DNA of 64,000 nucleotides from an uncultured Gammaproteobacteria bacterium (GTDB lineage Bacteria; Patescibacteriota; Microgenomatia; Daviesbacterales; UBA10151). Shown here in pieces: positions 4,364 through 57,254 of the stretch. Within the stretch, counting starts at the first letter, position 1. Every line of letters starts with the position of its first letter. The position numbers were made by a program, and so were the translations under genes. The notes below the pieces were generated by a model that saw only the letters and a list, made by a program, of their open reading frames with translations, was not told the DNA's origin and did no database searches. The stretch covers positions 40,593 through 104,592 of the forward strand of contig CAYQAW010000001.1 of assembly GCA_964415615.1 (NCBI GenBank). Reading direction: 5' to 3'.

Positions 4364-4805
4364 ATGTTACTCTTTCAATATACTTTATAAATATTAACGT
4401 TGTCAACTAAAGCTTTCATCTCTCTTGGTGCTTGACAGCCTTATCATATCATGCTAGGCTCAACTGAGGCTAATTTTAAATACCGTCATGGCTATCCAAC
4501 AGACTAAAAAACAATCAGATCTGGAAAAGCGCCTGCAGTTACTGCGTAAACAAGTCTATGGCAATGAGAAGTTCAGAGTTCAGAGTTCCCCGGCCTCGCT
4601 CCGCGAAGCGGGGCGGGCAGAGTTCAGAGTCGAAAACAAAGGAACTGTAAACTCTTCTAATGATCTTACTTATCTAGGTCAGGATTTATTAAAGATTTTA
4701 ATCTTTTCATCCGCAGCTATTGGTATTCAAATTGTCTTATTTATACTACTGAAAACTAATATCTTGAAACTAAATTTATTTTGAAGGGAGGTGAAATTTA
4801 AGTTA

Positions 4806-5004: not shown

Positions 5005-5270
5005 GTGCCTAGGAAGTTAGTAAGCCAGATTCTGTTTCTCGATGATCATTTATCTAACGCTCCTTACTTCAACAAATGGGCAAGCAGCCCTGTTGGTTCT
5101 AGGATTGCAGCGGGGAGGATTGCCTCGTTTCACTCCCAATTTTCATCAGGATTCGTCACTGTTGCTCTATACTAGGCCTTACGGCTGTCGCCTTACGGCG
5201 ACCACCCTGCTTTGTGCTGTCTGGACTTTCCTGTCGCCTAAGGCGACCGATCATCCTTCTTCCTAGGCAA
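5005..5270 (-). ncRNA. rnpB: RNase P RNA (bacterial type, reduced size about 265 nt)
   Basis: The minus strand reads GCCTAGGAAG...CGACAGGAAAGTCCAGACAGCAC...ACAGAATCTGGCTTAC...CTTCCTAGGC. Both P4 strands (AGGAAAGUCCxGxC and ACAGAAxCyGGCUUA) and a closing P1 helix (CCUAGGAAG/CUUCCUAGG) are present. The GC content is higher than its surroundings. Confidence 0.75.
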
Positions 5271-6252: not shown

Positions 6253-7210
6253 CTGCAGCTTGATGATACCATTTAACTATTACTTTTTCCACATTACCAG
6301 AAAGATATTGATCAGTTATATCAAACCATTCAATATCTTTCTCTTTTTTAAACCAGGTTTGTTGCCTCCGGGCATACCCATGAATTTTTCCTTGCATAAT
6401 CTTAATTAAATCTTCTTTACTAATAATCTTTCCCTCTAAAAAATCAGCCAATATTCCATATTCTAATCCCAACTGCCTCATTCTTCTAAGACTCAAACCT
6501 GCTTTATGTAATCTTTCTGCCTCATGAATCATTCCCTGATTAATCCTAGAAATAACCCGTTCATCAATTCTTCTGTAAAGAATATCCCTGGGAGCATTTA
6601 ACCCAATCTTTAAAAGATTAGCTTGCTTAAATCCTAAATCATAAATCATAAATCTACTCTTTTTCGGTCTTACCATTATCATTTCTATTGCCCTAACAAG
6701 TCTCCTAGGGTTGTGTCTATCAGACCCATTAAGGCTTTCCCATTTATTTTTATCTAGATTTTGTAACTTTTGTTGTAATTGCTCTTTAGAAAGCTCCTGC
6801 AATTCCTTTCTTAAATCTTTATCTACAGGAATAACTAGATTTGGTAAGCCTTCAAGCAATGCTTTTAGATACAAACCAGTTCCACCTACAATAATTGGCA
6901 GTTTCTCTCTACTTAAGATATTATCCACAACTTTGTTTGCATCTTTAACATAATTATAAACTGTATATTGCTGTCTAAAATCCACCACATCATACATCCA
7001 GACTTTTACCCCATCCATCTCCCAAAACCCTTTACCTTTTTCAACTACTACTTGCTTATCTGGAAGCTTACCTGTCCCAATATCTAATTTTTTGTAAACC
7101 TGCCTTGAATCACAACTGACCAACTCTCCATTAAACTTCTTAGCTAACTTTAGAGCTAAATCTGTTTTACCAGTTGAAGTAGGACCCACGATCATCAATA
7201 ATTTATTCAT
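6236..7210 (-). CDS. miaA: tRNA dimethylallyltransferase
   Basis: P-loop N-terminus LLMIVGPTSTGKTDLALKLAKKFNGELVSCDSRQVYKKLDIGTGK. This is the classic MiaA start. Confidence 0.85.
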   Translation of the reverse strand: MNKLLMIVGPTSTGKTDLALKLAKKFNGELVSCDSRQVYKKLDIGTGKLPDKQVVVEKGKGFWEMDGVKVWMYDVVDFRQQYTVYNYVKDANKVVDNILSREKLPIIVGGTGLYLKALLEGLPNLVIPVDKDLRKELQELSKEQLQQKLQNLDKNKWESLNGSDRHNPRRLVRAIEMIMVRPKKSRFMIYDLGFKQANLLKIGLNAPRDILYRRIDERVISRINQGMIHEAERLHKAGLSLRRMRQLGLEYGILADFLEGKIISKEDLIKIMQGKIHGYARRQQTWFKKEKDIEWFDITDQYLSGNVEKVIVKWYHQAADVTQD

Positions 7211-18005: not shown

Positions 18006-18635
18006 TTAATTTTTGTCAATAACTTGTTTGATTATTTCATATTCAAATCCTTTTCTCATTAAAAACTCAAATGCTTTTTTCTTAAATTCTAAGGGGTCTA
18101 AATTTTTCCAAAATCTCATTTTCTTTTCCAAAGCTTGTTTTGCCAGCTCCTCTTCATTGAACTCTTGACTCTCGACTCTAGTCACTTCCTCAATAATTTC
18201 TTTATCAATCCCTTTTTGGAAAAGTTCTGCTTTAATTGCTCTTATTCCTTTTTGTTTACTCTTCCTTCTTGCTTCTACCCAAGCTTTAGCAAACTCTAAA
18301 TCGTGAACCATCCCTTTTTTCTTTAAATTTTCCACCAAAGCATCTACTACCAATTGACTTATTTCTTCTTTTCTTCTGACTCTAAAATAATCCCTAACTT
18401 CTTTTTCCGAATGTTGTCTAATGCCAAACCATCTGTACATCCTCTCCATTAATTTTCCTACTTCTGCCTCAAATAAAATTTTCTCCAGATCTTCTGGGGT
18501 TATAACTTTCCCAACCACCAATCTTCTATTGACTACTAAATCTTCATCTGCTCCAAATGCAAATTCCCCATCCAAAAATACATTAAATCTTCGTGGATTC
18601 TTTTTTTGTGGCTCTACTGAAGTAATCTTAGACAT
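18006..18635 (-). CDS. recX: recombination regulator RecX
   Basis: 209 aa of three-helix repeats (DYFRVRRKEEISQLVVDALVENLKKKGMVHDLEFAKAWVEARRKSKQKGIRAIKAELFQKGI), located near recA. Confidence 0.8.
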   Translation of the reverse strand: MSKITSVEPQKKNPRRFNVFLDGEFAFGADEDLVVNRRLVVGKVITPEDLEKILFEAEVGKLMERMYRWFGIRQHSEKEVRDYFRVRRKEEISQLVVDALVENLKKKGMVHDLEFAKAWVEARRKSKQKGIRAIKAELFQKGIDKEIIEEVTRVESQEFNEEELAKQALEKKMRFWKNLDPLEFKKKAFEFLMRKGFEYEIIKQVIDKN

Positions 18636-20297: not shown

Positions 20298-20370
20298 TCG
20301 GGGTGACAAGAATTGAACTTGCTACATCCGCGACCCCATCGCGGCGGTCTACCGATGACCTACACCCCGT
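20298..20370 (-). tRNA. tRNA-Pro (anticodon GGG)
   Basis: The minus strand reads CGGGGTG-TA-GGTC-ATCGGTA-GACC-G-CCGCG-AT-GGG-GT-CGCGG-ATGT-GCAAG-TTCAATT-CTTGT-CACCCCG-A, a full cloverleaf with U33 and G37. CCA is not encoded. Confidence 0.8.
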
Positions 20371-20413: not shown

Positions 20414-21190
20414 ATGAAAATTATTTCCTTAAATACTTGGGGTGGAAAGATCTATCACCCTTTAATAAATTTTATAAACAAAAACGCAAAAGACACAGAT
20501 ATTTTCTGTTTTCAGGAAATATTTGATACAACCTCTGCCCTTACTGATGTTTTAGGATACAGAGTAAATTTATTCAAAGAAATTACTAAAGTCCTAATAA
20601 ATTACTCAGGATACTTTTTCCCATGTATAGATAATTATTTAGTTGGAAGTTTTCAAAAACATTTTACAGATTTTAACCTCTCTTCAGGGTTGGCAATATT
20701 TGTCAAAAAATCTTTAAAAATAACCTCTTCCGGAGATTTCTTTGTTTATAGAAAGAAAAATGATCACAAGTTGGGAGATTTTAATACAATGCCAAAAAAT
20801 GCACAATATATTAGTTTATCTGCTGCAGGAAAACAATTTGTTATTTGTAATATTCACGGTCTCTGGAGTACTGAGGGAAAATATGATACTCCTTCTCGTA
20901 TTCAACAATCTCAAAAGGTTGAAAAGTTTTTAGATGATCAAAAAGGCGGAAAAATTTTGTGTGGGGATTTGAATTTAGCATTAAATACTCGAAGCTTAAA
21001 AATATTAGAAGAAAATATGACCAATTTAATCAAAAAATATAATATTCCTACAACTAGAAACAAACATTTCCCAGGTATGGAAAAATTTGCAGATTATACT
21101 TTTGTATCTCCCGATGTAAAAGTTATAGACTTTCAAGTACCTGATATTGAAATTTCTGATCATCTACCCATGATTTTGGAGTTTTCTTAA
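20414..21190 (+). CDS. endonuclease/exonuclease/phosphatase (EEP) family protein
   Basis: MKIISLNTWGG...DIFCFQEI N-terminal motif and a C-terminal SDHLP motif, both typical of the EEP fold. Confidence 0.7.
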   Translation: MKIISLNTWGGKIYHPLINFINKNAKDTDIFCFQEIFDTTSALTDVLGYRVNLFKEITKVLINYSGYFFPCIDNYLVGSFQKHFTDFNLSSGLAIFVKKSLKITSSGDFFVYRKKNDHKLGDFNTMPKNAQYISLSAAGKQFVICNIHGLWSTEGKYDTPSRIQQSQKVEKFLDDQKGGKILCGDLNLALNTRSLKILEENMTNLIKKYNIPTTRNKHFPGMEKFADYTFVSPDVKVIDFQVPDIEISDHLPMILEFS

Positions 21191-22302
21191 ACTATTTTTT
21201 CCCAGGGGAATTCATCTCGGCCAAAGTGACCATAAGCTGCTGTTGGCAAATATATCGGCCTTTGCAAATCTAAGCCTTTTAATATTCCTGAAACTGATGT
21301 ATCTAAAATTTTCTGCATAAAAGATAGAATTACTTTGTGTGATTTTTTATTAGTCCCGAAAGTTTCTACATCCTGCATAGTAGGTTTCCTAGCTCCTATA
21401 AAATAGGCAAGTCTTACTTCTGCTTTGTCTGCCAGTTTTGCAGCTACAATATTTTTTGCCAAGAATCTGGCAGCATAAGCACCAGATCTGTCCACTTTTG
21501 TTGGATCCTTCCCGGAAAAAGCTCCTCCACCCACTCTGGCATAACCTCCATAACCATCAACTACTATCTTTCTACCAGTCAGTCCACAATCAGCAGCAGG
21601 ACCACCATGATGCCAAACCCCTGTCCCATTAACAATTATTTTATCCTTTTTGATTTTAAATCCATAAACATCTAAAACAGGTATTACTACTGACTGATAA
21701 ATATCATCTTTAACTTTATTCAAATTAACAGATTCCTCATGTGGAATAGCAATAACAACTTGAGTGACTTTATATGGCTTGCCGTCTCTATACTCAATTG
21801 TTACTTGAGACTTCCCATCAGGCCTTAAATATTTAACAATTTTCTCTTCTCTGGCTTGATCCATTCTTTTAGTTAGAGCGTGAGCCATGGTAATAGGCAG
21901 AGGCATCAGGCAAGTTGTTTCTCTGCAGGCATATCCAAACATCATTCCCTGATCTCCGGCTCCTTTTTTATCAACACCAACTCCAATTTCAGGAGATTGT
22001 TCGTGAATATGAACCTCTATTGATGATTTGTGAGAAAAATCATAAGTTGGATCTGTATAGCCTAATCTTTTAATTTGATCTCTGGCAACCTGCCCGTAAT
22101 CCACCCTGGCATGAGCAGTAATCTCCCCGGAAATTACTACTCTGTTAAACCCTGCCAAGACCTCGCAAGCCACATGACCAAATCTATCCTTAGTTAAAAC
22201 TGCATCAACAACTGCATCAGAGATAGCATCACAAATTTTATCCGGGTGACCAGAACAAACTGATTCTGAAGTAAATGTTGTTACACCGTTAGTTTTAATC
22301 AT
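21187..22302 (-). CDS. metK: S-adenosylmethionine synthetase
   Basis: FTSESVCSGHPDKICDAISDAVVDAVL and GGGAFSGKDPTKVDRSGAYAAR are present. The start is set at MIKTNG because the upstream 21 codons overlap the riboswitch terminator. Confidence 0.9.
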   Translation of the reverse strand: MIKTNGVTTFTSESVCSGHPDKICDAISDAVVDAVLTKDRFGHVACEVLAGFNRVVISGEITAHARVDYGQVARDQIKRLGYTDPTYDFSHKSSIEVHIHEQSPEIGVGVDKKGAGDQGMMFGYACRETTCLMPLPITMAHALTKRMDQAREEKIVKYLRPDGKSQVTIEYRDGKPYKVTQVVIAIPHEESVNLNKVKDDIYQSVVIPVLDVYGFKIKKDKIIVNGTGVWHHGGPAADCGLTGRKIVVDGYGGYARVGGGAFSGKDPTKVDRSGAYAARFLAKNIVAAKLADKAEVRLAYFIGARKPTMQDVETFGTNKKSHKVILSFMQKILDTSVSGILKGLDLQRPIYLPTAAYGHFGRDEFPWEKIV

Positions 22303-22305
22303 AAA

Positions 22306-22435
22306 AAACCTCTCAAAAAAATATGAGAGGTTTACAGTTTGTCCGACATTAAGTCGAGACCACATCTTCCTCTCAGGAATCTGGCACCTTAGGCTTTAAG
22401 GTTGCCGGTCGCCTAGGCGACTCTCTTGATGTATT
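22306..22435 (-). promoter_or_regulatory. SAM-I (S-box) riboswitch with intrinsic terminator, controlling metK
   Basis: The minus strand reads ACATCAAGAGAGTCGCCTAGGCGACCGGCAACCTTAAAGCCTAAGGTGCCAGATTCCTGAGAGGAAGATGT, with AUCAAGAGNGG, GGCAACC and AAGGUGCCAAAUUCC blocks and a closing P1. It is followed by the terminator AACCTCTCA-(9 nt)-TGAGAGGTTTTTT directly before the ATG. Confidence 0.8.
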
Positions 22436-22481
22436 TATTATTTAACCATAACTACTTTATTTTGACAAGTCCTCAAAAATT

Positions 22482-25095: not shown

Positions 25096-25119
25096 AAATT
25101 AGGGGCTAGTTACTAGAGT

Positions 25120-25575
25120 CTAGTGACTAGGTTTTTTCTCCCTTTTCTTATTAGCAGGTTTCTTTATTTCTGCATTTACTTCTTTTTTATCTTCTTTTCT
25201 TGACTCTAGACTCTTGACTCTAGACTCTTTTTTGGTTGGCTTTAACTGCTCTGCTCCAATTAAGCTCATTTTCACCATAGTAGCCTGATCTCCCTGTCTT
25301 GGCCCCATTCTTACTGTACTAGTAAACCCGGATGTTTTATTTCCTAATTTTGGCAGTATTTCTTTTATCTTTTCTTTTAATTCCTTGTCTGAAGAGAATG
25401 AGTCTTTCTTAACTGAATTGATGATTTTATCAACTAATCCTTTAATTGATTTTGCCTTAGATTCCGAAGTTTGAATAGTACCGTGTAAAAACAGCGACCG
25501 CACCAATGTTTTAAAGAGTGCTTGACGCTGACCTATATCTCTTCCCAGGTGTTTGCCATAAACTCTATGCCTCAC
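25120..25575 (-). CDS. rplQ: 50S ribosomal protein L17 with a Lys/Ser-rich C-terminal extension
   Basis: MRHRVYGKHLGRDIGQRQALFKTLVRSLFLHG. The tail contains a 14-nt tandem duplication (25198-25225). Confidence 0.9.
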   Translation of the reverse strand: MRHRVYGKHLGRDIGQRQALFKTLVRSLFLHGTIQTSESKAKSIKGLVDKIINSVKKDSFSSDKELKEKIKEILPKLGNKTSGFTSTVRMGPRQGDQATMVKMSLIGAEQLKPTKKESRVKSLESRKEDKKEVNAEIKKPANKKREKKPSH

Positions 25576-27893: not shown

Positions 27894-27947
27894 ATTAAAA
27901 CTTTCTTCCAAATTGTAAATTGTAAATTGTAAATTGTAAATTCATAA

Positions 27948-28064
27948 TTATCCTTGTCTTTGTTTGTGCCTCGGATCACGAGGGCAAATCACATACAACA
28001 TGCCTTCACGCTTAACGATTTTACAAAACTTACACCTTGCTTTAATTGATGCTTGTACTTTCAT
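27948..28064 (-). CDS. rpmJ: 50S ribosomal protein L36 (zinc-binding form)
   Basis: Manual [41 protein letters not shown]. It is too short for the ORF track. Confidence 0.9.
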
Positions 28065-33260: not shown

Positions 33261-33351
33261 ATTAGTCGCTCCGCTCCAATGTATAATTGAAAATGTAAAA
33301 TGGAAAATTATTTTTCATAGTTTTTAATTGTAAATTGTACATTGTAAATTG

Positions 33352-33897
33352 TTAATTTCTAAATGGCATTCCTAAATACTCTAATAATTTCTTACCTTCT
33401 TGTTTGTTTCTTGCAGTAGTGGTGATAGTTACTGCCAAACCTCTGGTTTTATCCACGCTTTTATAATCAACTTCTGGAAAAATAGTTTGCTCTTTCAAAC
33501 CAATATTTAAATTCCCATTTTGATCAAAAGCATCAGCAGATATACCTCTGAAATCTCTCACCTTAGGTAAAACAATACTTACTAACTTATCCAAGAAAGC
33601 ATACATTTTATCACCTCTCAGTGTCACCATCATCCCAATTGGCTGACCCTGTGCAACTTTAAAAGCTGCAATTGATTTTTTGGCCTTTGTTACAACAGGG
33701 TTTTGACCTGCTAGAGCAGATAAATAAACCTTTACCTTATCCAGAATACCGCTATTATCTTTTGCTTCACCCAAACCAATACTAATTACTATTTTTGTAA
33801 CAGAGGGCACTGCCAGCTTGTTTTTAAATCCCAACTCCTGCTGCAATTTTGCTTGTATTTCTTTAAAATATTTTTCTTTAAGCCTTTGCATTTTCAA
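33352..33897 (-). CDS. rplE: 50S ribosomal protein L5
   Basis: MQRLKEKYFKEIQAKLQQELGFKN... Confidence 0.92.
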   Translation of the reverse strand: MKMQRLKEKYFKEIQAKLQQELGFKNKLAVPSVTKIVISIGLGEAKDNSGILDKVKVYLSALAGQNPVVTKAKKSIAAFKVAQGQPIGMMVTLRGDKMYAFLDKLVSIVLPKVRDFRGISADAFDQNGNLNIGLKEQTIFPEVDYKSVDKTRGLAVTITTTARNKQEGKKLLEYLGMPFRN

Positions 33898-34563: not shown

Positions 34564-34588
34564 AAAATTAGCTATCAGTCTTCAGCTT

Positions 34589-34969
34589 TCAGCTGTCAGA
34601 CTTCTCCTTCCTTTTAGCCTTTTTTTCTGCTTTTTCAGTCTGATGACTGACAGCTGATGACTCTTCAGTCTTTTCTTCTTCTGGCATTACTTCAGCTATC
34701 GCCTGCTCTGCTGCCATTTTCTGTTCTGCCTCCACAATTTCTGCTAAATTCTTCCCTATTACCTTTACAACTCTCCAGTGTTTATTTTTAGAAACTGGTT
34801 TTACTTTAATAATTTCTACTATATCCCCCAGCTTTACTCCAATAGGATCATCCACTAAAATATTTTTAGATCTTAAAAAAGTCTTTCTATATAAAGGATG
34901 CATGGCTGTCCTTTCTATAAGCACTGTTGCAGTTTTACTCATTTTTGCTGATATTACTCTGCCTTTCAT
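34589..34969 (-). CDS. rpsQ: 30S ribosomal protein S17 with a repeat-encoded Lys-rich C-terminal tail
   Basis: GRVISAKMSKTATVLIERTAMHPLYRKT. The tail ...SHQTEKAEKKAKRKEKSDS is encoded by repeat module A. Confidence 0.9.
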   Translation of the reverse strand: MKGRVISAKMSKTATVLIERTAMHPLYRKTFLRSKNILVDDPIGVKLGDIVEIIKVKPVSKNKHWRVVKVIGKNLAEIVEAEQKMAAEQAIAEVMPEEEKTEESSAVSHQTEKAEKKAKRKEKSDS

Positions 34970-34994
34970 GAAATTAGCTATCAGTCTTCAGCTT

Positions 34995-35291
34995 TCAGCT
35001 ATCAGACTTTTCCTTTCTTTTGTTTGACTTCTTTGGCTTTTCTTCTTTTTCATCTGTTTTTTCAGTCTGGAGACTTATTGACTCTAACTCTACCATCAAT
35101 TCTTTCTGTTTGATCAGTGTCAAGATTTGAGCCACTTCTTTTTTCCTTTTTGAAATCGTTTTTAAATCTTTTAATTTCTTCATATTTTTATCCAAAGTCA
35201 AACTAACAATTTCTTCAGTTAAAGTCTTTACTTTAAGTTTTAGTTCTTTTAAATCTAATCCTTTAATTTGTACAAACTCGTTTTTTTTCAT
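34995..35291 (-). CDS. rpmC: 50S ribosomal protein L29 with a repeat-encoded C-terminal tail
   Basis: MKKNEFVQIKGLDLKELKLKVKTLTEEIVSL... The tail ...EKPKKSNKRKEKSDS comes from repeat module B. The start is set at MKKNEF. Confidence 0.85.
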   Translation of the reverse strand: MKKNEFVQIKGLDLKELKLKVKTLTEEIVSLTLDKNMKKLKDLKTISKRKKEVAQILTLIKQKELMVELESISLQTEKTDEKEEKPKKSNKRKEKSDS

Positions 35292-35370
35292 GTTTTTGAT
35301 CCTTTCAAAAAGACAAGGTTCTGATGACTGAGCAATATAATATTTCCAAATTGCGAAGTCATCATGGTCC

Positions 35371-35784: not shown

Positions 35785-36425
35785 TAAATTTTTACCTCCC
35801 CTTTATTAATCCACACTTTTACCCCTACATATCCTGATTTTGTCAAAGCTGGGTATGAAGCAAAATCTATATCCGCTCTTAAAGTATGTAAAGGCATCGT
35901 TCCCGAGGCTTTCCATTCACGTCTCGCAATCTCTGCTCCACCAATTCTACCAGACAAAACAACTCTGACCCCTTTTGCGCCAGATCTCATCGCTCTTTCG
36001 ATTGCCTGATTCATCACTCTTTGCGCAGGAAGTCTTCTGGCAAGCTGTTCAGCCACAGATTGAGCAACCAAGTAAGCTACGGAATCTGCTGATTTTATTT
36101 CCATTGGCGCCACTTCTAAAGTGTTATCGTTTTTAATCTTTAATTCTACCATTAGAAACTTTTTAATTTCAGTTAAACCTGTTCCACCTCGTCCGATCAA
36201 AACTCCAGGGCGCGAAACAAAGATTATAACTTTTAATTTATTCACCGCTCTCTCAATCTCTACAGCAGCTACCCCTGCTTTTGAGAGCTTCTTCATCAGC
36301 AGATCACGGATTTTCAAATCTTCTAAGACATTTTCTCTATATTTAATTCCATGAGCAAACCAACGTGACTTCCAAGTTGACCCAATACCCATTCTAAAAC
36401 CTACCGGATGTATTTTTTGTCCCAT
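35784..36425 (-). CDS. rpsC: 30S ribosomal protein S3
   Basis: [15 protein letters not shown]... Confidence 0.93.
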
Positions 36426-36455
36426 AAAAAGTCATCAGTCTTCAGCTTTCAGCTA

Positions 36456-36875
36456 TCAGACTTTTCCTTTCTTTTGTTCAACTTTTTCTGTTTCTGTCTG
36501 CTTTGTTTTCAGTCTGATGACTGATGACTGATGACTGATGACTATTGGCTCATCACTTAGCACTATTTTTATATGTGCCATCCTCTTTTTATATGGTCTC
36601 ACTCTTCCTCTGGTACCTGCCCTGAAACGGCGCATCTTTGTGCTTTCATTTATCTCAATTGTCTTAAAACTTGCTTTTTGGGAATCTAAACCTTTCCCCT
36701 TAGCATTAGCAAGCACTGTTTTAATGGCTTTCTGAAAATCTAAAGCAGCAGACTTGGGTGTAACTTCCAAAACAGCAATGGCTTGATCAGGAGTCATTTT
36801 TCTCACCATATCAGCTACTAATCTCAATTTTCTTGGACTTGTATGTATATATTTTTGTATCGTTGTTATTTCCAT
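36456..36875 (-). CDS. rplV: 50S ribosomal protein L22 with a repeat-encoded C-terminal tail that contains a heptanucleotide tandem repeat
   Basis: METTIQKYIHTSPRKLRLVADMVRKM... The tail VISHQSSVIRLKTKQTETEKVEQKKGKV is encoded by repeat module C and includes (CTGATGA)4. Confidence 0.9.
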   Translation of the reverse strand: MEITTIQKYIHTSPRKLRLVADMVRKMTPDQAIAVLEVTPKSAALDFQKAIKTVLANAKGKGLDSQKASFKTIEINESTKMRRFRAGTRGRVRPYKKRMAHIKIVLSDEPIVISHQSSVIRLKTKQTETEKVEQKKGKV

Positions 36876-38323: not shown

Positions 38324-38994
38324 TTCAACCTTTCTACTGCTTCTTTGGTAACAAAAAGTAATTCATGTTTTACAATCTCATAGGCATTAATGAGGCTGAC
38401 CGGCAAAATATCTGCTTCCGGGATATTTCTGATAGCCCTGACTACATTATCCTGCTTTTCTCCAGTCACAATCAGTAAACTTTTAGCTTTTAGCTTTTTA
38501 AAAAGCTTTACCATTTCTTTGGTTTTACCTGAAGATTTTTCCAACCCTGATAATCCTATTATTTTCTTGTCAGCTGCTTTTTCAGAAAGAGCTGAAAGTA
38601 GGGCTGCTTTTTTCATCTTTCTTGGTAAATCTAATCTAATTTTGCGGGGTTTAGGACCAAAGGTTATTCCCCCACCCACAAAAATAGGTGCCCTTACTGC
38701 GCCATGCCTGGCTCTACCTGTTCCTTTTTGTCTATAAATTTTAGCAGTTGACCCTTCAACTTCTCCTCTGGTTTTAGTCGAACCTGGCAAATTCTTTTGA
38801 TTAGTAGTATAAACTTTGACTGCTTGTGCCAAAAGGCTTTTGCTTACTTTTTGACCAAAGATTTCCTTTGGCAAAGCTAAAGTTCCATCCTCTTTACCTG
38901 CTAAAGAATAAACAGGAATAGAAAGACTAGATCCTTCGACTCGCTTTGCTCGCTCAGGATGACTCGCTTTGCTCGTCACTTTCTTAACTGGCAT
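38320..38994 (-). CDS. rplD: 50S ribosomal protein L4
   Basis: 224 aa. ...IYRQKGTGRARHGAVRAPIFVGGG... Confidence 0.92.
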   Translation of the reverse strand: MPVKKVTSKASHPERAKRVEGSSLSIPVYSLAGKEDGTLALPKEIFGQKVSKSLLAQAVKVYTTNQKNLPGSTKTRGEVEGSTAKIYRQKGTGRARHGAVRAPIFVGGGITFGPKPRKIRLDLPRKMKKAALLSALSEKAADKKIIGLSGLEKSSGKTKEMVKLFKKLKAKSLLIVTGEKQDNVVRAIRNIPEADILPVSLINAYEIVKHELLFVTKEAVERLK

Positions 38995-40391: not shown

Positions 40392-40703
40392 TTATTTAGA
40401 AGAAGGATCAGGCATAAAAGGATGTCGAAGGTTGTATAAAGCCCTAGCTTCAGTTTGTCTCATCCATCCAATTGAGTAAGGTCTCCCTCTTAATTCCATT
40501 CCTACTATTTCTCCAACTTCAGCAAATGACTTAGATCTACCATCATCTAAACCAAATCTTAATTGAAGCACTCTTCTTTCCCTATGAGTAAGCCCATTTA
40601 AAACTTCCTCTACTTCTCGCATTGACTCTTCTATGCTTTTTATAGTAAGGCTCGAAAACGATGCTGCTAATTCTGATTCATTTATATTTGGATTTTCTAC
40701 CAT
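40392..40703 (-). CDS. stand-alone sigma-70 region-4 (sigma 4.1/4.2 HTH) domain protein
   Basis: 103 aa. LNGLTHRERRVLQLRFGLDDGRSKSFAEVGEIVGMELRGRPYSIGWMRQTEARALYNLRHP aligns with RpoD region 4 (LTxRExxVLxxRFGLxDG...EVG...RQIEAKALRKLRHP). It carries a 7-aa insertion in the recognition helix. The gene starts 17 nt downstream of the rpsJ stop. Confidence 0.6.
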   Translation of the reverse strand: MVENPNINESELAASFSSLTIKSIEESMREVEEVLNGLTHRERRVLQLRFGLDDGRSKSFAEVGEIVGMELRGRPYSIGWMRQTEARALYNLRHPFMPDPSSK

Positions 40704-55929: not shown

Positions 55930-56292
55930 TTAAATTAGTCCAAAATATTTTTTGGCTTCCTGCTCATCTTTTTTCATTTGTTTTATTAACTCCTCAGCAG
56001 AATTAAATTTTTGATTGTTTCTGATTTTTTTTATTAGACTAACAGAAATCCATTTACCATAGATATCTTTATTAAAATCCAATATAAAAGTTTCTGCAAG
56101 GAATTTTTTCTCATTAAAAGTTTTAGCCATGCCAATAAAAGTAAGTGAAGGGTATAAAACACCGTTTAGTTTAGTTTTGGAAATATATATTCCTACAGAA
56201 ATATCTTTTGTTAAATTAACATTAGCTGTAGGAAACCCTAATTTTTTTCCCCTCTGATTATGTTTTCTTACCTTCCCCCAAAATTTATTCAT
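55930..56292 (-). CDS. riboflavin kinase domain protein (stand-alone RFK, RibF C-terminal-like)
   Basis: 120 aa. GKKLGFPTANVNL is the RFK PTAN motif. Confidence 0.7.
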   Translation of the reverse strand: MNKFWGKVRKHNQRGKKLGFPTANVNLTKDISVGIYISKTKLNGVLYPSLTFIGMAKTFNEKKFLAETFILDFNKDIYGKWISVSLIKKIRNNQKFNSAEELIKQMKKDEQEAKKYFGLI

Positions 56293-57254
56293 GGGTTATT
56301 GGCTACATTTTGATTATGTTCTTCTAAAGTTTTGCCGTAATATGAGTTGCCTTTTGAGTCATGGTAATAATATAAATAAGGGGTGTTTAAATCAGCATTG
56401 GCCACAGCTTCAAGCGAGGCTAAACCAGGATTGGAAATTGGGGTTGGAGGCAAACCAGCATGCAAGTAAGTATTATATGGCGAGTCAACTTGAAAATCAT
56501 CTTTACTCAAATTCCTTTTCCACCAGCTTTTTTCCTGAAGTTGATACCCTAAAGCATATTGAATTGTAGCATCTGCATTCAGTCCCATATCTATTTTTAA
56601 TCTTTTAAGCAGAATGCTTGCTATTTCTGTTCTTACCTTTGCAGACCTTGCTTCCCGTTCAACAATAGAAGCTAAAATAATCCCTTGAGTCTCAGTAAGC
56701 CCTTTGGAACGGATTTGGGAACGCAAAGCGTCTGTAAAACGGTTATCAAAAGTTTTTCTCAAAGTATCAGTTATATATCCTACTGAAGCCTCTTTAGGAA
56801 AAAGGTATGTATCAGGAAACATGTAACCTTCTTTTGCCAATTCCAAAAATTTTGAATTTTGAATTTTGAATTTTGAATTTAATTCTTCTGCCATTTCTTC
56901 AACACGCCAACCCTCTATTAAAGTAACCCAAATATCCTCACTGCCTGTTTTCAAAGTTTTTACCAATTCCTGCACAGACATAGAAGGAGAAAGCTTAAAT
57001 GAACCTGCCTGAAGCTTATCTGTCAAATTATTTTGTTTGATATAAATCTTAAAAGCTAATTCTGATTTGATAAGATTATCTTCCTTTAACTTTTTAGCAA
57101 TTCCAGATACCCCGGTGCCTTTTTCAATTACAAAAACCTTAGTTGATTTATCAGAAGATACAGATCCCAATTGGCCATTCCACCAATTTTTACTTAAAAA
57201 AAATATAGCCATCAAAAAAATAAAAAACCAGATTATCCTTTTCATTTTTTTCAT
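56289..57254 (-). CDS. mltG: endolytic murein transglycosylase MltG (YceG family)
   Basis: N-terminal TM, then the EGYMFPDTYLFPKEAS (YceG) motif and C-terminal YYYHDSKGNSYYGKTLEEH. It contains a (TTTGAAT)4 tandem repeat. Confidence 0.8.
   Translation of the reverse strand: MKKMKRIIWFFIFLMAIFFLSKNWWNGQLGSVSSDKSTKVFVIEKGTGVSGIAKKLKEDNLIKSELAFKIYIKQNNLTDKLQAGSFKLSPSMSVQELVKTLKTGSEDIWVTLIEGWRVEEMAEELNSKFKIQNSKFLELAKEGYMFPDTYLFPKEASVGYITDTLRKTFDNRFTDALRSQIRSKGLTETQGIILASIVEREARSAKVRTEIASILLKRLKIDMGLNADATIQYALGYQLQEKSWWKRNLSKDDFQVDSPYNTYLHAGLPPTPISNPGLASLEAVANADLNTPYLYYYHDSKGNSYYGKTLEEHNQNVANNP

Follow-up and report, generated by a model that had tools for sequence, protein, structure and literature searches.

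Why do tandem arrays of a seven-nucleotide (nt) unit, which is not a multiple of three, occur inside the coding sequences of a ribosomal protein and a murein transglycosylase, and what shapes them there? The question is raised by a 64,000-nt stretch of metagenome-derived DNA (positions 40,593 to 104,592 of contig CAYQAW010000001.1, hereafter the window), in which the genes rplV (ribosomal protein L22) and mltG (MltG) each carry a perfect heptamer array. Tandem Repeats Finder (TRF) located the rplV array at 36514-36543 (period 7, 4.3 copies, 100% matches, unit CTGATGA) and the mltG array at 56848-56880 (period 7, 4.7 copies, 100% matches, unit AATTTTG). Both arrays of the original prediction are thus present as claimed, and the interval given there for mltG (56851-56878) falls within the one found by TRF. 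Both lie inside minus-strand open reading frames (ORFs), and their location in coding sequence was confirmed by Pfam. The ORF at 36456..36875 (139 amino acids, aa) matches Ribosomal_L22 (PF00237) over aa 7-107, and its tail reads ..PIVISHQSSVIRLK..; the array codes for VISHQSSVI within the 32-aa tail that follows the domain. The ORF at 56289..57254 (321 aa) matches YceG/MltG over aa 41-318 and contains the peptide NSKFKIQNSKF.

Arrays of this period are far more frequent in the window than expected by chance. In total, six perfect arrays of period 7 with 2.5 or more units were detected, compared with a mean of 0.05 and a maximum of 1 in 100 dinucleotide shuffles, and a scan of the 64-kb window at the same threshold revealed no perfect arrays of periods 4-6 or 8-15. 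When imperfect arrays were included (4 units, at least 80% matches), the number rose to nine versus 0.05 expected, again for period 7 only. The window contains at least 10 distinct heptamer units, and four of the six perfect arrays are within ORFs (miaA, the rplV tail, rplD and mltG), so that the arrays are not mainly intergenic.

The closest relatives of the S3, MltG and L22 proteins are encoded by Candidatus Daviesbacteria genomes (Candidate Phyla Radiation, CPR; Microgenomates) assembled from groundwater metagenomes, and the window derives from such a genome. The exact L22 protein was traced to NCBI assembly GCA_016180885.1 (contig JACPAI010000002.1). The analysis of period covered the 64-kb window and 222 kb of related loci. 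Among 32 Daviesbacteria-like S10/spc operon loci (222 kb), 16 perfect period-7 arrays were found, and no other period had more than one. A set of 128 loci at a greater distance had period-7 arrays in other CPR-like loci only; none occurred in the Alphaproteobacteria or Firmicutes loci, which contained a few in-frame hexamers instead. The heptamer excess is a property of the Daviesbacteria lineage, and the 7-mer richness proposed earlier for this genome holds for the window, where period 7 exceeds shuffled sequence, and for the related loci. A literature search for heptamer repeats in CPR or Patescibacteria returned no report.

As a whole, we favor, with moderate confidence, an explanation that combines lineage-wide heptamer hot spots with a junction element acting in the polycistronic mRNA. 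In the Daviesbacteria lineage, tandem repeats with a period of 7 nt, and of that period alone, would arise and stay homogeneous. The arrays would be local hot spots of slipped or out-of-register realignment, and in coding DNA only the length-preserving outcomes would survive. The underlying mechanism would be slippage or template switching, and the junction element would presumably function as RNA.

The rplV array is one arm of a larger structure. The whole rplV-rpsC junction element (36424..36543, minus strand; covariance-model match of 129 bits, with orthologues in loci L168-L171) is ~118 nt long and occupies the gap from the end of the L22 domain to the rpsC ATG. On the mRNA strand, its order is (AGTCATC)4 AGACT, a 48-nt A-rich spacer ending in AAAGGAAAAG, a 3' arm, TTTT and the ATG. 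The 5' arm (36514..36543, minus strand), defined by TRF, by sequence and as an inverted-repeat arm, is the perfect (AGTCATC)x4.3 array, which appears as CTGATGA on the plus strand. The A-rich spacer, or loop (36463..36513, minus strand; from the sequence and orthologue alignment), carries the Shine-Dalgarno (SD)-like AAAGGAAAAG at its end and encodes RLKTKQTETEKVEQKKG. The 3' arm (36430..36462, minus strand; from pattern search and RNA fold) reads AGTCTGA TAGCTGA AAGCTGA AGACTGA TGACT. The conserved L22 domain of rplV (aa 7-107) is located at 36555..36857 (minus strand; Pfam PF00237 and slippage simulation). In general terms, the plan of the element is (AGTCRTC)n, an A-rich spacer with AAAGGAG, and (NNNCTGA)4. 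The 5' arm is free of stop codons in every frame. In the 3' arm, a CTGA core recurs each 7 nt, and each of the three frames meets a TGA within 21 nt. This arm includes the stop codon of rplV (36456-36458) and ends 4 nt upstream of the rpsC ATG (36423-36425).

The heptamer blocks of the two arms are complementary, and the element is the longest inverted repeat of the window. Its predicted RNA fold has an energy of -43.6 kcal/mol (z -5.25), with none of 200 shuffles (0/200) as good, and the arm-arm duplex alone has a z of -7.8. In the 33-bp register 79% of the cells are paired, versus 18-48% in slid registers, and this register rests on the invariant TCAG/CTGA cores. One clear compensatory difference was observed: AGTCATC/GATGACT in the rplV copy of the window versus AGTCGTC/GACGACT in the rpsQ copy of L168. 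A scan with Rfam 15, ribosomal-protein leaders included and with the gathering score as threshold, gave nothing at 34.5-36.6 kb or 25.1 kb. In terms of terminator features, the rplV copy of the window is followed by UUUUU, but its loop is 48 nt long and its stem is AT-rich, and the other copies end in CUAAUUUC. The element was not flagged in a promoter and terminator scan, the overall counts of which were near those of shuffles.

The element has paralogues in the window. A pattern search with the 29-nt 3' arm found it three times at 0-1 mismatches, compared with 0 expected; the three copies follow rplV, rpmC (L29) and rpsQ (S17), with 4-6 nt between the end of each copy and the following start codon. 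At the rpsQ-rplN (L14) junction, the copy (34564..34669, minus strand; covariance model 107 bits, fold z -3.3) combines a degenerate 5' arm (AGTCATC AGCTGTC AGTCATC) with a 3' arm that is nearly identical. The copy at the rpmC-rpsQ junction (34970..35096, minus strand) scores 54.7 bits in the covariance model, with a fold z of +0.4. The S17 and L29 tails both end in KRKEKSDS*, from a shared reading frame of the element, whereas L22 uses another (..QKKGKV*).

Orthologous elements were found at the rplV-rpsC junction in four other species (L168-L171) and at the rpsQ-rplN junction in five loci (L014, L093, L092, L168 and L012). At rplV-rpsC, the 5' units are (AGTCGTC)3 in L168-L170 versus (AGTCATC)3-4 in L171 and the window, and the total length is equal. 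A covariance model (R1), seeded with 8 copies and run over ~550 kb, detected copies outside the seed in L171, L092, L017, L003, L018, L015, L012 and L004, and in each case the sense strand scored best. Copies of the element are thus present in at least 12 other loci, all in sense orientation and all at ribosomal-protein gene junctions. The model was negative for mltG-region loci (80 kb), for the remaining ~48 kb of the window and for non-Daviesbacteria CPR loci.

The conservation of the element differs sharply from that of the adjoining gene. Its identity between the window and L168-L171 is 0.78-0.83, compared with 0.45-0.48, i.e., saturation, at third codon positions of the neighboring L22 domain. 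Within the translated tail, the identity by codon position is 0.85/0.80/0.85, and in the untranslated part it is 0.85. Third codon positions and untranslated positions are thus as conserved as the others, which points to constraint on the nucleic acid and not on the peptide. Relative to AAAGGAGAAAAG in its relatives, the window has suffered a 2-nt deletion, as a result of which the L22 tail ends in GKV* and no longer in GEKSDS*, at no apparent cost. The L22 'extension' is an incidental read-through of the element and not a feature of the protein. The rplV array had originally been described as a repeat in an accessory L22 tail; it does affect only the tail, but it is an arm of a conserved palindromic element.

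How, then, would such an element come to be translated, and what might it do? At rplV, the upstream ORF runs into the ~118-nt imperfect palindrome, the 5' arm and most of the spacer of which are open in all frames. Since the 3' arm carries TGA in all frames, any frame ends before rpsC, and the tail would be a by-product. The element is envisaged as an intercistronic stem-loop in the polycistronic mRNA, which most likely couples the translation of the downstream ribosomal protein to the ribosomes finishing the upstream gene; alternatively, it may be a processing or stability site. A role at the mRNA level is favored because the copies are in sense orientation only and abut the ATG at a fixed distance, because rpsC, rplN and rpsQ are without a properly spaced SD sequence, and because the stop codon of the upstream ORF falls in the 3' arm, at 27-30 nt from the ATG that follows. 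It is also possible, although we propose it only tentatively and with considerable doubt, that the element is a cis-acting RNA new to science in Daviesbacteria ribosomal-protein operons, an intercistronic stem-loop read through during translation of the upstream gene and gating downstream initiation or processing, in which the CTGA/TCAG cores spaced at 7 nt are functionally required. If so, the periodic cores could represent, e.g., a protein-binding surface or all-frame stop signals, and the heptamer arrays would be raw material recruited by the lineage, beyond mere slippage debris.

Several observations weigh against a functional stem-loop. Covariation in the helix is not significant, since 99 of 500 shuffles reach the score obtained with seven copies, the arms being either too conserved or variable at unpaired positions. 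The sense RNA is more stable than the antisense in only five of the seven copies. The SD-like motif is ~45 nt from the ATG, which is at odds with a simple coupling model. The L29 copy keeps the 3' arm and the spacer, but its 5' arm has decayed and it forms no long hairpin. Of the 54 rplV-rpsC and rpsQ-rplN junctions compared among relatives, only 16 are unusually structured (z below -2), and in many relatives these junctions consist of a plain SD-ATG arrangement. Moreover, the confinement of the element to ribosomal-protein operons was seen in a sample of ~550 kb of DNA. Finally, the element has largely been lost in a close relative, a groundwater contig (L172), the rplV of which is 97.3% identical to that of the window (9 of 332 nt mismatched) and the rpsC start of which is the same. 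There, the 5' arm consists of one AGTCGTC unit versus four AGTCATC units and the 3' arm of three units versus four, 55 nt of the spacer are deleted, and L22 is 123 aa long. Given the many unstructured junctions and the loss of most of it in L172, the element is conserved where present, yet dispensable.

The same comparison bears on the turnover of the units. The L172 contig was obtained via a protein search, while a contig search with an S3 query gave a best match of 84% identity and no strain variants. In another homologue (P0122), L22 is 97% identical in the domain, and the tail is unrelated. The perfect (AGTCATC)4 array of the window is thus young: a degenerate unit, AGATAAC or AGACAAA in the relatives, has been converted to AGTCATC with the length unchanged. 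The outer 3' unit of the window has become GATGACT, an exact reverse complement of AGTCATC, and slipped or template-switch realignment may well have created the pattern of the rplV array. The expectation that gain or loss of a unit would shift the frame, and in L22 alter the tail alone, was reproduced in simulation; with -2 to +2 units, L22 is 119-134 aa long, the domain remains intact and the stop codon is always located before rpsC.

In mltG, the perfect array (AAATTCA)x4.7 (56848..56880, minus strand; TRF and alignments) encodes NSKFKIQNSKF within the linker that precedes the motif EGYMFPDTY. The array is in-frame and does not represent an insertion, as an alignment of 47 homologues shows the segment at equal length throughout. 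EGWRxEE and FPDTY lie 25 aa apart in 103 of 114 homologues, and a 7-aa difference, corresponding to a change of three units, was never seen. The DNA of six relatives (L162-L167) was compared at the identical codons. L162 has an (AATTCAA) array with one mismatch, and in L163 the units AGTTCAA and AATTCAA alternate. Perfect arrays are present in L164, (AATTCCA)4.7 with the peptide NSKFQIPNSKF; in L166, (AATTCGA)4 with the peptide NSKFEIRNS..; and in L167, (AGTTCAA)4.7 with the peptide SSKFKVQSSKF. Thus, four species carry four perfect units (AATTCAA, AATTCCA, AATTCGA and AGTTCAA) at the same codons, and the peptides of other MltG homologues imply further ones, e.g., STKYQVPSTKF for (AGTACCA)n. 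A unit variant with T at position 6, which would make TAA, is absent among the arrays examined.

The closest relative overall, L165 (3380-4345; flanking third positions 0.68), has no array; its 33-nt segment is unrelated (17/33 identical) and encodes NKQLGIDKKDF. Far more distant species match the window array at 28-32 of 33 positions, and in the case of L162 the array is 32/33 identical while the flanking third positions are at 0.45. Both array and non-array forms are widespread among 120 homologues, a dimorphism that may stem from recombination or repeated decay. Differing perfect units at a fixed length amount to concerted evolution. In the proposed mechanism, a heptamer array makes up the 11-codon linker, and every position of the unit is read in three codon phases; a mutation in the unit would spread only if all three readings were tolerable, and few unit variants would sweep. 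Since all seven unit positions are read in three phases, perfect but different arrays of a fixed length would result.

Unlike the rplV array, the mltG array has no complementary partner (z -0.5); such a partner was found for only 9-12 of 57 arrays, and A-rich arrays are mostly without one. Simulated gain or loss of one unit (+1 or -1) truncates MltG at 149-155 aa, in agreement with the truncation foreseen in the original prediction. A search for frameshifted MltG, using the N-terminal 136 aa, yielded six short fragments. One of them, P0241 (131 aa, on a 4352-nt contig), stops within the heptamer array, at ..SAKFQIPST; judging by the gene order, the contig probably ends there, which suggests that assemblies break at the array. 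Another, P0243, diverges from the MltG sequence at the heptamer array, and two others break at unrelated positions. The proposal that the arrays are mutational hot spots is supported by the change in rplV unit number in the 97.3%-identical relative and with the units of mltG evolving in concert.

The most serious rival to an RNA function sees in the junction element a palindromic repeat, selfish or neutral, that is tolerated at gene ends because it suits open reading frames. Duplication, a transposase or ectopic gene conversion would have spread it and intragenomic conversion would keep it in place, the heptamer arrays being mutational debris. Known elements of this kind are repetitive extragenic palindromes (REP) and their paired form REPIN, miniature inverted-repeat transposable elements (MITEs) and Rickettsia palindromic elements (RPEs), which are ~100-150 nt in length, have inverted arms and are found at gene ends or in-frame, where they add peptide. 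The junction element resembles them in its size, in its inverted arms and in having copies that evolve together within a genome. Its inverted arms surround a spacer over ~100-120 nt, the window holds three copies, and variants are specific to genomes: all three window copies carry ..GCTGAAAGCTG.., versus GCTGA[TC]AGCTG in other genomes. The patchy distribution among genomes and junctions and the fast loss or rearrangement in a close relative also fit, and the exact match between the outer GATGACT unit and the reverse-complemented 5' unit is expected from template-switch 'palindrome perfecting'. In contrast to REPINs, MITEs and RPEs, however, the copies are few, have heptamer arms with a 4-nt core and, in the DNA sampled, occur at ribosomal-protein junctions, in a single orientation and with every copy 4-6 nt away from a start codon. 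The element was not detected in ~130 kb of non-ribosomal-protein DNA from the same lineage, and inspection of the flanks of the window copies revealed no target-site duplication or direct repeat; nor was a transposase seen in the DNA sampled. Orthologues at the same junction are 78-88% identical across species whose synonymous sites are saturated, which is unexpected if the element is neutral. We therefore consider this rival unlikely, albeit one to be reckoned with.

The original prediction had also raised the possibility of hypermutable contingency sites. On this reading, the arrays would switch mltG on and off and vary the L22 tail, with adaptive heterogeneity of the population as the outcome, in the manner of neuO or hmw. 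The unit is not a multiple of three, a change of +1/-1 truncates MltG, the homogenization of units implies recurrent realignment, the number of rplV units differs among close relatives, and one short MltG fragment ends in the array while another departs from the family there. Nevertheless, the tracts comprise just 4-5 units and reside in housekeeping genes, the mltG array is identical in length in all array-bearing species examined (with the linker at 25 aa in 103/114), L22 is not switchable because its domain ends upstream of the array, and the short MltG fragments are equally well explained by contig ends or sequencing errors. With short tracts in housekeeping genes, a fixed mltG linker length and L22 function untouched, switching is highly improbable, and this part of the earlier proposal was not sustained. 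Selection at the protein level, for a K/E-rich L22 tail and an SKF..SKF linker in MltG, with the DNA periodicity as a secondary effect, seems scarcely credible. Tails of the type S[HR]QSSV[IV]RLKT..QKKGEKSDS do recur in many L22 homologues, and the length of the MltG linker is strictly conserved. However, third codon positions of the tail are as conserved as first and second positions, as is the untranslated 3' arm, the copies are read in different frames (KRKEKSDS* versus QKKGKV*), and close relatives have very different or very short L22 tails. In MltG, the peptides differ radically (KIQ, QIP, EIR, KVQ), while the DNA periodicity is perfect. Finally, the source is a metagenome-assembled genome, and tandem repeats are prone to collapse or mis-assembly, but the probability that the arrays are due to chance or an assembly artefact is close to nil, in view of six arrays versus 0.05 in shuffles, exclusively of period 7, and of independent assemblies from other samples that carry arrays at the same sites.

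Among known systems, the heptanucleotide arrays of cyanobacteria and Xanthomonas, described as STRRs or simple sequence repeats (SSRs), are the closest in kind. STRRs are short tandemly repeated repetitive heptanucleotides of heterocystous cyanobacteria (Calothrix, Nostoc/Anabaena). Common to both systems are the 7-nt units, the several unrelated units per genome, an excess specific to period 7, a location between co-transcribed genes and the occasional complementary pairs that lengthen a helix. Unlike the STRRs, the present arrays belong to a CPR bacterium with a small genome of ~36% GC, comprise 3-5 units and are often inside ORFs or C-terminal tails, and one arm-spacer-arm element is conserved across species at ribosomal-protein junctions. 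The title of a 1997 article by Vioque (cited in PMC2858038) refers to STRRs in the gene for RNase P RNA of cyanobacteria. In Xanthomonas (GGGAATC) and Nostoc PCC 7120 (GGGGA(T/C)T), heptamer SSRs are over-represented and other periods are not; most have ~4 units, some are inverted repeats able to form stem-loops, and they vary in length and sequence between related species, a polymerase-slippage hypothesis having been advanced for their period (PMC4692102). Those repeats are G-rich, potentially quadruplex-forming and intergenic, whereas the arrays in the window are AT-rich or have CTGA or CTAG cores, are partly coding and undergo concerted evolution under reading-frame constraint. The neuO gene of E. 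coli K1 carries (AAGACTC)n with 3-53 repeats, out of frame in 65.6% of genomes (PMC13001214), and hmw1A/hmw2A of H. influenzae contain phase-variable 7-nt SSRs (PMC8262952, PMC12721329). Like neuO, the present arrays have a 7-nt unit in coding sequence, which gives a full-length product at certain unit numbers only. In contrast, the neuO and hmw tracts are long, demonstrably variable and located in surface or virulence genes, compared with 4-5 units in housekeeping genes and a fixed length in mltG.

The excess of heptamers, noted for decades in cyanobacteria, Xanthomonas and other bacteria, has remained unexplained, and its occurrence in the tiny genomes of the CPR broadens the phenomenon. The mltG array, locked inside an essential-type gene, would provide a natural experiment, with units in concert and length frozen, by which homogenization can be gauged against point mutation and the units that survive in three phases can be identified. 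The rplV array provides another, in which a heptamer-built stem-loop, conserved as nucleic acid at ribosomal-protein gene junctions, is translated into C-terminal tails. It also serves as a warning that 'extended' ribosomal proteins of the CPR can be read-through of a junction element rather than protein innovation.

Additional period-7 arrays of the window are distributed among other junctions and genes. The rplQ (L17) tail and the rplQ-rplM junction (25100..25230, minus strand) carry heptamer arrays with a plan like that of the rplV element: an array of GAGTCTA/GAGTCAA at 25197-25230 is followed by a 67-nt A-rich spacer and an array of CTAGTCA CTAGACT CTAGTAA CTAG at 25100-25130, then AATTT and the rplM ATG, 5 nt away. 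The L17 tail was considered as the same long hairpin and rejected, as each arm is paired internally in the minimum-energy fold. Relatives (L008, L091) carry similar CTAG-type arrays at other junctions. Between rplP and rpmC (35322-35364), an inverted repeat of 15 bp, ATGATGACTTCGCAAT ... ATTGCTCAGTCATCA, contains the same AGTCATCA motif; the L29 ORF as listed (130 aa, TTG start) overlaps this repeat, and the NCBI gene call is 98 aa long.

Two intergenic regions contain AT-rich arrays, identified by TRF and the period scan. At rpmJ-rpsM (27904..27950, minus strand), (ATTTACA)x5 has no complementary partner, and at rplE-rpsN there are two AT-rich heptamer arrays (33278..33362, minus strand). Read in the sense direction, the (TTTACAA)n sequence at 27904-27950 and at 33318-33362 (minus strand) gives TTTACA-N17-TACAAT and TTAACA-N17-TACAAT (10/12 matches with the consensus of sigma-70), immediately upstream of rpsM and rpsN, with the spacing of -35 and -10 set by three units (21 bp). 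The E. coli counterpart of these promoter-like sites is the spc/alpha operon boundary region. Within coding sequence, (TGATTTA)x3.9 lies in-frame in the IPPT domain of miaA (6624..6657, minus strand; TRF, period scan and Pfam). Further short arrays were observed at 38480-38498, 18161-18179 and 4570-4588; besides miaA, the hosts of short arrays are rplD and recX (both in-frame) and a stretch near the RNase P RNA gene that is probably non-coding.

At one and the same junction, the heptamer units differ between species (L002-L021, L082-L093). In Daviesbacteria S10/spc operons, the lengths of tails and junctions appeared hypervariable at L3>L4 (-8 to 280 nt), L2>S19 (-1 to 366 nt), L22>S3 (-8 to 235 nt) and S17>L14 (2 to 163 nt), with S3>L16 and S14>S8 remaining tight, although these lengths are of qualitative use only, since the query proteins carry the tails of the window itself.

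The only Rfam matches in the window were RNase P RNA, a tRNA and a SAM-I/IV riboswitch (5005-5266, 20298-20369 and 22325-22437, respectively). The RNase P RNA match is a short bacterial form (262 nt versus a model of 367 positions), and the riboswitch is located upstream of the gene at 21187..22365. The title of PMC7143001 reports strong strand compositional disparity in another Microgenomates genome; in the window, nearly all genes are on the minus strand, and the GC skew is negative in each 4-kb block (-0.07 to -0.32).

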